64,000 nucleotides of DNA. Source: Bacteroidales bacterium (GTDB lineage: Bacteria > Bacteroidota > Bacteroidia > Bacteroidales > UBA932). The DNA lies in contig JAGAFU010000028.1 of NCBI GenBank assembly GCA_017627955.1, forward strand, positions 13,808 through 77,807, in the 5' to 3' direction. Below are positions 4,774 to 14,412 of the stretch, piece after piece. A model generated the notes under the pieces. The model was not told the origin of the DNA and ran no database searches. It worked only from the letters and a program-made list of their open reading frames with translations. Each line of letters starts with the position of its first letter. The stretch's first letter is position 1. The position numbers and the translations under genes were made by a program.

Positions 4774-5418
4774 TTGACGCTTGAAGAAATACTGAATAGC
4801 CGGGAGGCCAGGGTGGCGAGGCAGCGTGAGCTGCTGGAGGCCAATCCTGGCCTTTCGCTTATTTCTTTGACGGTGCAGCCTCCTGGGCCAGTTAAGAGAA
4901 ATGATGCATCCTTGGTGATCGCGGAGGCTGGAGTGGCGGCTGTTCGTAAGGCTTTCAAAGTTGAATATGAAGAACTTCGGGACTTGGATACTGGTTTTGA
5001 GGGATTCTTCCTTGTGAATATGGATCCCCTCGAGACCAAGCGCCTGACTTGCCGAATCGAAGACACTCATCCCCTCGGTCGCCTCATGGACATTGATGTC
5101 ATCGTCTTGAACGGCATTTCCGATTTATCGGCGGCAAGCGCCACCCCTGTCTCGCTGCGCTTCGCGCCCTATCCGGGTAAATGCTCGCCAGGGGTGGCCT
5201 TGACCGCCGAATGTCAACCTGTCCCCTCCGAATGTCATCCTGAACGAAGTGAAGGATCTGTCCCTCTGCCGATCGGGCGGGAGGAACTCGGACTCGGGCC
5301 GAGAAAGTGCCTTCTTTGCGACCGGCCGGCCAGGGAATGCATGCGGGCTCGGACTCACTCTATCGAAGAGTTGCTTGAAAATATTCAAACTTTGGTCAAT
5401 TCTTATTTAAATTTATAA
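4774..5418 (+). CDS. citX: Apo-citrate lyase phosphoribosyl-dephospho-CoA transferase, carrying an in-frame repeat-derived insertion of about 45-50 aa
   Basis: REARVARQ, PGPVK, GRLMDIDV and RKCLLC...CMRARTH motifs; TTG start directly after citF; extra segment between DIDV and IGRE. Confidence 0.9.
   Translation: MTLEEILNSREARVARQRELLEANPGLSLISLTVQPPGPVKRNDASLVIAEAGVAAVRKAFKVEYEELRDLDTGFEGFFLVNMDPLETKRLTCRIEDTHPLGRLMDIDVIVLNGISDLSAASATPVSLRFAPYPGKCSPGVALTAECQPVPSECHPERSEGSVPLPIGREELGLGPRKCLLCDRPARECMRARTHSIEELLENIQTLVNSYLNL
5128..5210 (+). repeat. Family D long hairpin element inside citX
   Basis: 33-bp core 5151-5183 matches the reverse complement of 61636-61668 at 32/33. Perfect 10-bp stem GCCACCCCTG (5140-5149) / CAGGGGTGGC (5189-5198). 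Outer stem TCGGCGGCAAG / CTTGACCGCCGA. Confidence 0.9.
5233..5259 (+). repeat. Family A 27-bp palindromic repeat inside citX (encodes CHPERSEGS)
   Basis: TGTCATCCTGAACGAAGTGAAGGATCT; related copies at 6056, 11227, 14386 (minus) and 63656. Confidence 0.9.
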
Positions 5419-5426
5419 TAAAACCC

Positions 5427-5456
5427 TTGTAAATCTATAACGATTTATTACATTTG
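5427..5456 (+). promoter_or_regulatory. Bacteroidetes sigma-A-type promoter upstream of citC-citG
   Basis: TTG at 5427-5429, 19-nt spacer, then TACATTTG at 5449-5456 (TAnnTTTG consensus) in an AT-rich gap. Confidence 0.65.
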
Positions 5457-14200: not shown

Positions 14201-14350
14201 CGTAAGGTCGGCAGTCCCACCTTTCCTTATCGAGAGTGTGGACTGGCTCAAAGACACCCCGGAGACTTCAACAACAGGATCCTCCTTCGGGCCGCATGCG
14301 GCGAGAAGAAGTGTCAAGGTGGTTAGAATAAGCAGATAAGCTTTTTTCAT
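11252..14350 (-). CDS. Surface lipoprotein: 3 Ig-like (Big_2) domains, LRR region, thioredoxin-like region and M64-like metallopeptidase
   Basis: Lipobox LLAAC; repeated TWSSS..VATV..G.V.AV..G.ATITATA; LRR repeats L..L.L..N.LSGSIP; C-terminal VHEVGGHGIGKLGDEY and YEGG...GVWRP...SVM. Confidence 0.8.
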   Translation of the reverse strand: MKKAYLLILTTLTLLLAACGPKEDPVVEVSGVSLSQSTLSIRKGGTADLTATVSPSNATDKTVTWSSSNSSVATVNRGTVNAVAVGTATITATASGRTATCEVTVTPKGVSSITLDKTTASLDAKDVLTLTATIAPDDADDKTITWTSSDESVATVENGKVTAVGKGKAIITATAGSIKATCLITVSFPIKSISLNKSSVKIEEEGETTLTAKVDTDDPDVKVEWTSSDTDIATVDENGVINGIAIGETTITATAGDKTATCKVTVTEAAYKAKEKAALIKLFNANNGNNWDDFTKQNWCSDQPLELWRGIEMTPDGKHVRSVWIYDDNLKGQIPKEIADLTELEVFKMINPSGIPNEGYPLPSEIGNLKKLKNLTLWTYTVSGTVPKSIYKIQSLEALVLVHIPLSSWTIPSDIFNLKNLKQLSLRGCNLTGKIPDGIGQITGLEELNLQSNKLSGSIPASLGSLINLKELDLSINNLSGSIPTTVANMDNYWRLWPNIFWGNNFTMDNLRESKIPIPRSPKITTLSGKELDIETEFSKNQYTVLFNMNPKSGDAVDCLAQLATLYKTGKSKGLGIISYFDNNSTEISSRDERDELFKSVLNKTGATWDSFIRHLYDEYPAGAPFYAEKGSAMYPHPIENCIVIIGPDQTVVYTTLFDKSRDYLNNAVAFLQKELKTTVTHYESTSYTQDGKYTQLQKATKGKGVDLVITGDGFSDRLISNGTFKKTAEQAVEDLFSAEPLKSMKDRFNIYLVNAVSKHEEFFNGNSTVFECVFGKGSAVGGDIEKALEYAKKAVKDNARMDNVAVLVLLNTVRSGGMCSMIYPEDQSVYAGGPSVSWIPYKDVNVSGGISSLAETIVHEVGGHGIGKLGDEYAYRDQGMISAEDVSYARKDQTQRNWYLNVDFTSNPSQVLWKEFIGDSAFSSEKIGVYEGGFTFWSGVWRPTEQSVMNDGYHNPNFNAPSRALIWKRIMKLSEGESWNYDYNAFKTWDKAHPVQTRVTTRSSVERPDFKEVHLPPVVIRKTWKEVTEGR

Positions 14351-14385
14351 TGCTATAATACTTTTTGGTTTTTCTCCAATTTAAA

Positions 14386-14412
14386 AGATTCTTCGCTTCG
14401 CTCAGAATGACA
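14386..14412 (-). repeat. Family A repeat in the gap between the two lipoprotein paralogs
   Basis: Minus strand reads TGTCATTCTGAGCGAAGCGAAGAATCT, starting 2 nt after the TAA of the 14415-18035 gene. Confidence 0.9.

Follow-up and report, generated by a model that had tools for sequence, protein, structure and literature searches.

Hairpin repeats of four families (A to D) are dispersed through a 64,000-nucleotide stretch of a Bacteroidales genome (the window; C14:13808-77807 of the 60-contig, 2.58-Mb genome G000, 52.6% G+C). The evidence as a whole is best explained if family A, and probably the core of family B, constitute the cognate DNA site of a small GIY-YIG nuclease of the Ssn type, a reading based on sequence comparison to which we assign a probability of roughly 0.7. 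By analogy with the characterised enzyme SsnA, recognition of the hairpins most likely occurs in single-stranded DNA (ssDNA), and on one strand. An earlier note on this stretch, which had described a mini-hairpin with a GNA triloop in most repeat copies, took that motif to point to ssDNA recognition; insofar as the analogy holds, this idea is now well supported, because family A shares the anatomy of the SsnA site (the unpaired GTC tag, A-T/T-A at the start of the palindrome, and a C on its 3′ side) and brackets the lone Ssn-like gene of the genome.

Family A numbers about 122 copies genome-wide (n=122, counted as whole-genome matches with four or fewer mismatches from the 27-nt consensus TGTCATyCTGAGCGAAGCGAAGrATCT) and is a complete 27-nt hairpin, more than a mini-hairpin. 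Its TGTC tag (T1-C4) is unpaired, A5-T9 pair with A21-T25 in a 5-bp lower stem (ATyCT/AGrAT), and tandem G.A pairs (G10.A20 and A11.G19) are followed by G12-C18 and C13-G17, which close the loop G14-N15-A16. The C directly 3′ of the stem, C26, is invariant (122/122), as are T3 and C4 of the tag (122/122 each), while G2 is kept in 120/122. Covariation was scored on the 38 distinct sequences against 500 shuffles and slid registers: 95.1% of cells are paired, both sides have changed in 4 of the 7 pairs, and the score of 0.237, against 0.119 in the shuffles, was reached by none of the 500 and collapsed in every slid register. The two main covarying pairs, 7-23 (T-A 66, C-G 52, G-C 1, unpaired 3) and 12-18 (G-C 102, A-T 19, unpaired 1), occur in all four combinations with pairing kept in each, and half-changed copies of pair 12-18 are absent. 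The remaining pairs are more uniform, with A5-T25 in 120/122 copies, pair 6-24 as T-A in 119 and C-G in 2, and the closing pair 13-17 as C-G in 117, T-A in 1 and T.G in 2. The compensatory G-C to A-T swap that the earlier note had picked out from a few copies is thus genome-wide at pair 12-18; it may stem from few events, though it recurs in other phyla (7/36 extra hairpins).

The triloop itself was borne out more broadly than first described, GNA being found in 110 of the 122 copies (GAA 90, GGA 9, GTA 7, GCA 4; the rest are GCG in 7 and others in 5). Over all 122 copies the loop base N (A 93, C 11, G 9, T 9) is the most variable position of the unit, so that C-G closure (117/122), the GNA loop (110/122) and a variable N all agree with a mini-hairpin of the d(GCGNAGC) type. 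Such mini-hairpins are known for their extra stability, a property of the type rather than a value computed for family A. The structure is strand-specific, since the reverse strand has TC/TC mismatches and a TTC loop. Folding energies of family A (-0.8 to -2.7 kcal/mol) are not below those of shuffles, and count as no evidence either way because the nearest-neighbour DNA parameters give no extra weight to GNA loops or sheared G.A pairs. The heptamer GCGNAGC, with 1370 sites genome-wide, is near its composition expectation and shows no enrichment. The evidence for the hairpins is therefore the apical position of the motif and covariation, not energy.

A GIY-YIG profile search of the genome returned UvrC and one small gene, C3:804-1106, on a contig outside the window. 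Its product is a single-domain protein of 101 aa that matches Pfam PF01541 (GIY-YIG) at 63.1 bits (E=7e-17) and is named in the public record as GIY-YIG nuclease family protein [Bacteroidales bacterium]. Residues Y8, Y19 and E66 are spaced as the catalytic Y6, Y17 and E64 of SsnA, a correspondence of spacing and not of direct alignment; the nearest solved structures are UPF0213 proteins (E about 1e-6), and no NCBIfam model matches the protein. A GIY-YIG gene flanked by the repeats had been suggested as something to look for, and this gene has that arrangement. On its 5′ side stand three to four 18-nt half-units and then an A-like hairpin in plus orientation, TGTCATTCTGA-GAGC-GAA-GCTC-GAAGAATCT, 8 nt before the ATG; on its 3′ side follow A(-), A(-), a half-unit and A(+), the last eight codons of the gene lying inside the first A(-) copy. 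The cassette (C3:690-1210) abuts the apparent truncated 3′ end of an ORF6N-like gene.

The site anatomy of family A matches that of the meningococcal enzyme. SsnA of Neisseria meningitidis is a 94-aa single-domain GIY-YIG protein of the CDD family cd10448 (Chenal et al. 2025, Nat Commun 16:2388, PMC11893778). It binds the NTS hairpin CGTCATTCCCGCGMAVGCGGGAATCYRG as ssDNA only and cuts a few bases upstream, and double-stranded DNA (dsDNA), RNA and the reverse strand are not substrates (PMC11893778). Cutting depends on the three bases that precede the palindrome and binding on the C that follows it, and the loop can be removed without loss of cleavage (PMC11893778). The conserved G2, T3, C4 and C26 of family A are the positions that matter for SsnA cutting and binding. 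Ssn-related motifs (SRM) flank 71% of Ssn homologues; in vivo SsnA lowers transformation by NTS-bearing DNA; and the authors note a layout like that of an insertion sequence, with the gene within inverted sites, and leave mobilisation open (PMC11893778).

Gene and repeat also go together across genomes, the repeat being almost confined to those with the gene. The Ssn homologue is patchily distributed, being present in 45 of 121 genomes sampled at the level of the order and in 8 of 61 sampled at the level of the family. Family A was found in 8 genomes of the order sample, all 8 with the gene (P=2.4e-4), and in 7 of the family sample, 4 of them with the gene (odds ratio 16.7, P=0.004). Only this genome (95 copies in this comparison) and G130 (84 copies) have at least 84 copies of family A, and both carry the gene, while two genomes of the same genus are without the gene, without family A and, where tested, without family B. 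Most of the 84 copies in G130 form inverted pairs 40-70 nt apart, resembling the doublets known as REPINs, and this genome has mostly singletons. Beyond the order, the exact 25-mer GTCATyCTGAGCGAAGCGAAGrATC was found in at least 120 species-representative contigs of at least 12 phyla, assigned by record title, which include Acidobacteriota, Nitrospirota, Chloroflexota, Gemmatimonadota, Bacillota, Patescibacteria, Verrucomicrobiota, Planctomycetota and Cyanobacteria; inverted doublets are common at these loci, and tandem 5′ half-copies often stand in front. Three of 120 such repeat-selected loci hold a small GIY-YIG homologue, in each case within about 120 nt of the repeat (chance about 5e-5).

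The bracket recurs around 80 metagenomic homologues of the small protein (51-100% identity), for which A-like copies were sought within 400 nt: 43 have one upstream, 48 downstream and 36 on both sides, and the typical layout is A(+) 25-44 nt before the start, the gene, and A(-) 9-40 nt after the stop. Altogether 67 of the 80 loci hold 155 hairpins of the form stem-TGA...GAA-stem, with the GTC tag in 152 and a GNA end in 116. Where the A consensus is missing, the hairpins retain TGTCATCCTGAGC...GTCGAAGGATCT as their outer part, and their inner stem is longer, compensated and often again capped by GAA or GTA. What all Ssn-flanking hairpins have in common, those of family B included, is the series T-A, G.A, A.G, G-C, that is, TGAGC...CGAA. 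Because 116 of 155 end in GNA, the others differ or are longer, and the G.A box is common to all, the GNA triloop is best read as the commonest but replaceable cap, the tandem-G.A box being the shared element and the triloop a pointer to ssDNA rather than the recognition core. This agrees both with what is known of d(GCGNAGC) hairpins and with the dispensable Neisseria loop.

Family B, counted as the 86 copies that have a flanking stem, reads cGGTCCC-TGAGCGGAGyCGAA-GGGCCg or cGGTTGG-TGAGCGGAGyCGAA-CCACCg, the two stem types being mutually compensated. It has the G.A box of family A plus a one-base pyrimidine bulge, and its loops too are of the GNA type (GGA 81, GAA 3). The core TGAGCG(N)AG(y)CGAA is thus common to the two families, and in Bacteroidales hairpins of either type are found beside Ssn homologues: at five fetched loci, hairpins with the B core adjoin the homologue on stems that are very different and always complementary. 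The B core is present in 36 of the 121 order genomes, and 10 of the 14 genomes with at least four copies carry the gene (P=0.006). Families A and B therefore plausibly share an Ssn system.

GNA apices had also been described in families C and D, and they are present in both. In family C the apex is GC-GAA-GC or GC-GGA-GC amid a variable number of GCGAA units. Family D (25 copies) has GCGC-GNA-GCGC in 16 and a GNA loop in 22, with one doubly compensated copy (GTGC..GCAC) and three with G.T wobbles. Eight of the 25 have an A or B unit at a distance of 56-156 nt from the tip, in every case on one and the same side and oppositely oriented (background rate 2%, P=2e-8), so that the GAA-reading strand of D is opposite the functional strand of A. 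Family D is thus physically coupled to A and B, yet its taxonomic range is far narrower, this genome being the only one of the 121 to have it. The suggestion that families A to D share one mobiliser therefore stands as plausible for A and B, through their common core and their presence beside Ssn homologues, and less so for D (1/121 genomes, opposite strand), so that a mobiliser common to all four is unproven.

The mechanism that we favour would begin when the TGTCAT strand becomes single-stranded, the only state in which it would fold into the tagged G.A-box hairpin; to this step the covariation speaks directly. Extrapolating from the Neisseria and Wolbachia enzymes, the nuclease would grip the folded hairpin together with the 3′ C and place its nick in that same strand, 5′ of the GTC tag and a few bases away from it, ignoring dsDNA, RNA and the complementary strand. 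The triloop would serve as a fast and stable folding cap for a very short stem rather than as the main recognition determinant. More speculatively, the hairpin-gene-hairpin cassette might move between genomes, and nicking at the tag, with subsequent repair or template switching, might multiply the units, leaving tandem 5′ and 3′ half-copies, singletons in tiny intergenic gaps and some in-frame copies in genes. To the host, the system may serve to restrict or modulate ssDNA that enters the cell, as it does in Neisseria.

Several features of the copies bear on this turnover. Arrays of 5′ half-copies (tag, 5′ arm and 5-8 nt; period 17-24, mostly 19-20 nt) accompany 25 of the 122 family A copies, and arrays of 3′ half-copies (for example ATGCGAAGCGAAGGATCT) accompany 16. 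The 5′ arrays fall exactly where an Ssn-type nick would lie, from which we infer a link with nicking. A 354-nt unit of hairpin and gene is 98.9-99.4% identical in four rumen metagenome contigs (L128-L131), their flanks being 51-87% identical, and the 18-nt half-unit GTTCTTTTCTGTCATTCT upstream of the gene is present 1, 2, 2 and 3 times in those contigs and 4 times here. Upstream of family A copies the mean folding energy equals that of random sequence, and only the tail at or below -30 kcal/mol is enriched (10.7% against 3%), which is at most suggestive of an insertion preference next to strong hairpins. Insertion footprints are unreadable in the same-genus genome G006, as it has no DNA match to window positions 4700-7700. 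Family A is mainly intergenic: only 4/122 of its copies have coding-like sequence on both sides, and 16/86 of those of family B. Most copies of family A that had appeared to lie within open reading frames (ORFs) proved not to be intragenic, since a stricter coding test showed that these ORFs had been extended through intergenic repeats.

The partner first proposed for the repeats, a Y1 enzyme of the HUH class, either a REP-associated tyrosine transposase (RAYT; REP, repetitive extragenic palindrome) or an IS200/IS605 TnpA that would mobilise REP-like elements by reading the ssDNA hairpin, now appears very unlikely. The Y1_Tnp search did find six diverged Y1-like ORFs in the genome, one about 5 kb beyond the end of the window, and three of the four tested match the NCBIfam model of the REP-associated tyrosine transposase weakly, at 34-38 bits against a cut-off of 80; a Y1 match is present in all 7 family-A-positive genomes of the family sample (P=0.035), and family B copies lie 256-520 nt from two Y1 genes. 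However, none of the six is bracketed by families A-D, and two RAYT-like genes outside the window, at C12:21030-22620 and C49:6330-7580, are bracketed on both sides by low-copy hairpins of their own, GCCATGTGTGCCAA..TTGGCACACATGGC and GCCGGTAGAGGTCC..GGCACCTCTACC, respectively, in the classical REPtron layout. They amount to REPtron-like units, present alongside the Ssn-type system and with no repeats in common. The GTAG tag of REPs is absent from family A, and the presence of Y1 genes does not discriminate, because they occur in 39 of the 61 family-level genomes, and 32 of those 39, among them one with 7 Y1 genes, are without family A. REPs with CGTC or TGTC tags, moreover, never flank tyrosine transposase genes (Di Nocera 2013, PMC3733652). 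Equally hard to sustain, and to our minds highly improbable, is the proposal that the hairpins act as RNA, as terminators, mRNA stabilisers or protein-binding motifs, with an incidental link to the nuclease gene. Copies between co-directional genes do favour the sense orientation (30 against 12 antisense), many lie at gene 3′ ends like the REPs of E. coli, and tandem G.A pairs and GNA loops are stable in RNA too. Against this, no Rfam family matches the repeats, whether at the gathering score or with E<=1 as the limit (the only matches were a tRNA and, by chance, a miRNA), the copies shown have no T-run after the stem, they occur in both orientations and inside ORFs, and the two main covarying pairs have no intermediates of the G.U type; the related SsnA shows no binding to its site as RNA (PMC11893778), and a fixed bracket around a nuclease gene across phyla would go unexplained.

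A third alternative, which we consider possible though doubtful, accepts the hairpins as Ssn sites and denies that the nuclease mobilises them, attributing their spread to slippage, gene conversion, recombination at hairpins and horizontal transfer, and their maintenance to Ssn cutting that restricts or shapes the ssDNA arriving by conjugation or transformation. It draws on the fact that restriction of transforming ssDNA is the only in vivo role demonstrated for Ssn (PMC11893778). Orphan low-copy repeats persist in genomes without the gene, half-copy arrays resemble slippage products, and replication-strand bias is absent. GIY-YIG enzymes are hydrolytic nickases, and we know of no strand-transfer step for them. 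It is harder to reconcile with the restriction of high copy numbers (at least 84) to genomes in which the gene is present, or with near-identical copies in tiny gaps and in frame, which need an insertion mechanism; and a gene enclosed by inverted sites is arranged like a mobile unit, a point made by the Ssn authors too (PMC11893778).

Several of these points count also against our own view that families A and B are sites of an Ssn-type nuclease whose nicking might multiply them. Membership of the C3 protein in cd10448 is a putative assignment made through proxies. The published SRM pattern, HGTCWYN(0-2)YYVSBRHN(0-5)WNVSBRGN(0-2)RNCYNB, matches 0/122 family A copies, and its 32 matches genome-wide compare with 27 in a reversed control. 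Three genomes (G131, G134 and G143) carry 3-10 copies of family A with no detectable gene. The genome's own Ssn gene is flanked by A-type hairpins only, and family B has no clear unpaired GTC tag, which makes its action on B less certain. Set against local GC skew, family A copies divide 71:51 by orientation (P=0.085) and family B copies 44:42, so that no replication-strand bias is seen that would speak for transposition through ssDNA. Recombination or slippage, rather than a nuclease, may multiply the repeats, and the role demonstrated in Neisseria is restriction of transforming ssDNA, not mobilisation.

Within the window, the core pattern TGARYGNRRYGAA occurs 6 times, against 0.34 in shuffles, none of 100 of which reaches 6. 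The copies cited in the earlier note read as it had described them, including the lack of a GNA loop at 6056 and at 59866. The copy at 5233-5259 (+) has the TGTC tag and the compensated A-T centre AC-GAA-GT, and stands immediately beyond the foot of a family D hairpin; that at 63656-63682 (+), also with AC-GAA-GT, fills the gap from a stop codon to the ATG of the next gene. At 11208-11253 (+), directly after the terminator hairpin of icd, a 5′ half-copy (TGTCATCCTGAGCG, 11208-11221) precedes a full copy (11227-11253) with the centre GC-GCA-GC, and at 14386-14412 (-) a copy with the centre GC-GAA-GC is intergenic, one of two lipoprotein paralogues lying on each side of it. The copy at 6056-6082 (+), with the centre GT-GCG-GC, has a wobble pair and no GNA loop, and is read in frame (..TCHPECGEGS..) in a 739-aa ORF at 5456-7675 (+). 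This ORF fuses a GNAT-like domain with CitC (citrate lyase ligase) and CitG (triphosphoribosyl-dephospho-CoA synthase), and stays open in frame through family C, A, C, C and B units, one of which splits the CitG match.

The family C hairpins of this ORF are a long one at 5954-6045 (-), in frame, with the apex GC-GAA-GC in a GCGAA-rich run, a short form at 6530-6595 (+) with the apex GC-GGA-GC, and a long one at 7312-7405 (+) with the apex GCGAAGCGAAGC. The last abuts the family B copy at 7400-7427 (-), GGTCCC-TGAGCGAAGTCGAA-GGGCC, which has the G.A box, a GAA loop and the one-base bulge. A hairpin of the family B type at 59866-59893 (+), CCGGTCCC-TGAGCTTGTCGAA-GGGCCGG, retains the G.A box and has no GNA loop; its core, TGAGCTTGTCGAA, is the source of the 'SLSKG / FDKL' junk peptides common in many phyla, which suggests a still wider superfamily built on the TGAGC...CGAA box. 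At 48142-48174 (-), inside an ORF, a hairpin with a 13-nt A-type core (TGAACGGGGTGAA), upper pairs AC/GT and the loop GGG, which is not GNA, is set between unrelated 8-bp stems (GGGCTCCA/TGGAGCCC). The two long hairpins of family D, at 5128-5210 (-) and 61601-61702 (+), have the same constant tip with GCGC-GAA-GCGC on stems that are matching in each case and different from each other. A tRNA gene at 27992-28064 (-) is the sole Rfam match at gathering score in the window.

If family A and the B core are indeed Ssn sites, the finding would supply a candidate partner gene for one of the most widespread short repeats of bacteria and metagenomes, the source of spurious 'CHPERSEGS' and 'VILSEAKDL' peptides, and would place Ssn-type and RAYT-type hairpin systems side by side, unmixed, in one Bacteroidales genome. 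Current motif searches undercount such sites, because the SRM pattern misses family A and this genome would score as SRM-free. Tentatively, and with the odds rather against it, the TGTCAT hairpins with tandem G.A pairs and GNA loops could form, with their clade of Ssn enzymes, a distinct class found across bacteria, in which the enzyme reads the apical box and its nick 5′ of the tag seeds both the half-copy arrays and new copies, in-frame insertions in genes included. The box read would be T-GA-GC...GC-GA-A, and the lower stem may be any complementary sequence, as in family B, in which case the site would be naturally programmable. No site-specific nucleases confined to ssDNA were known before the Ssn enzymes, which are in development as tools, and a clade that keeps a 13-14-nt apical box with any complementary lower stem would widen the usable pairs of enzyme and site.

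Literature text searches with the repeat sequence or its peptides returned no relevant paper, and a search for GIY-YIG combined with REP found nothing; four known systems nevertheless invite comparison. The palindromic elements of Rickettsia (RPE), as Ogata et al. reportedly described in 2000, insert in frame in protein genes and are translated as extra segments; family A differs in being mostly intergenic, with a minority of clearly intragenic copies. REPs, the mosaic elements that they form (BIMEs) and the REPIN-RAYT systems are likewise short, strand-oriented, tagged hairpins of high copy number, often in inverted doublets, and the gene that they surround is single-copy and encodes a protein active on ssDNA hairpins. 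Their tag is GTAG, however, and their enzyme an HUH tyrosine transposase, and the RAYT-like genes of the present genome have separate hairpins. Closer are the CGTC/TGTC-tagged REPs, which were found in five phyla including Bacteroidetes, with intragenic units and no linked transposase (Di Nocera, De Gregorio and Rocco 2013, BMC Genomics 14:522, PMC3733652). They include Neisseria dRS3 and Rickettsia RPE-4/RPE-6, and their stems begin A-T, T-A (PMC3733652). Family A resembles them in the unpaired tag at one end, in first stem pairs that are A-T (120/122) and T-A (119/122), in its occurrence in Bacteroidetes among other phyla, in its intragenic units and in the lack of linkage to a tyrosine transposase. 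Theirs have an 8-9-bp stem, a 4-5-nt loop and a 3-nt CCA-like tail, whereas family A, with its 5-bp stem, tandem G.A pairs, 2-bp stem, 3-nt loop and C-T tail, falls outside this definition; a tandem-G.A box would have been excluded by the 2013 pipeline, which tolerated one stem mismatch at most. They were then still without a dedicated enzyme.

The likeness to Ssn and its SRM is more extensive. In both, a gene for a single-domain GIY-YIG protein of about 94-101 aa lies inside inverted copies of a dispersed repeat (tens to hundreds), the repeat is oriented by a 5′ (C/T)GTCAT tag and has a palindrome that opens with A-T/T-A, a C immediately behind the palindrome and a GCG(N)A(N)GC-like centre, and gene and repeat co-occur across genomes. 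NTS, in contrast, has an uninterrupted 8-bp stem where family A has a 5-bp stem, tandem G.A pairs, a 2-bp stem and a 3-nt loop; B-type sites vary the lower stem and keep the apical box, whereas NTS depends on its stem sequence and can do without the loop; and some copies here lie in frame within genes, the intragenic share of NTS being 2%. The repeats are thus of a known kind, that of Ssn/SRM and the CGTC/TGTC REPs, and what is new here, and missed by the published SRM pattern, is the tandem-G.A box with its 3-nt loop.

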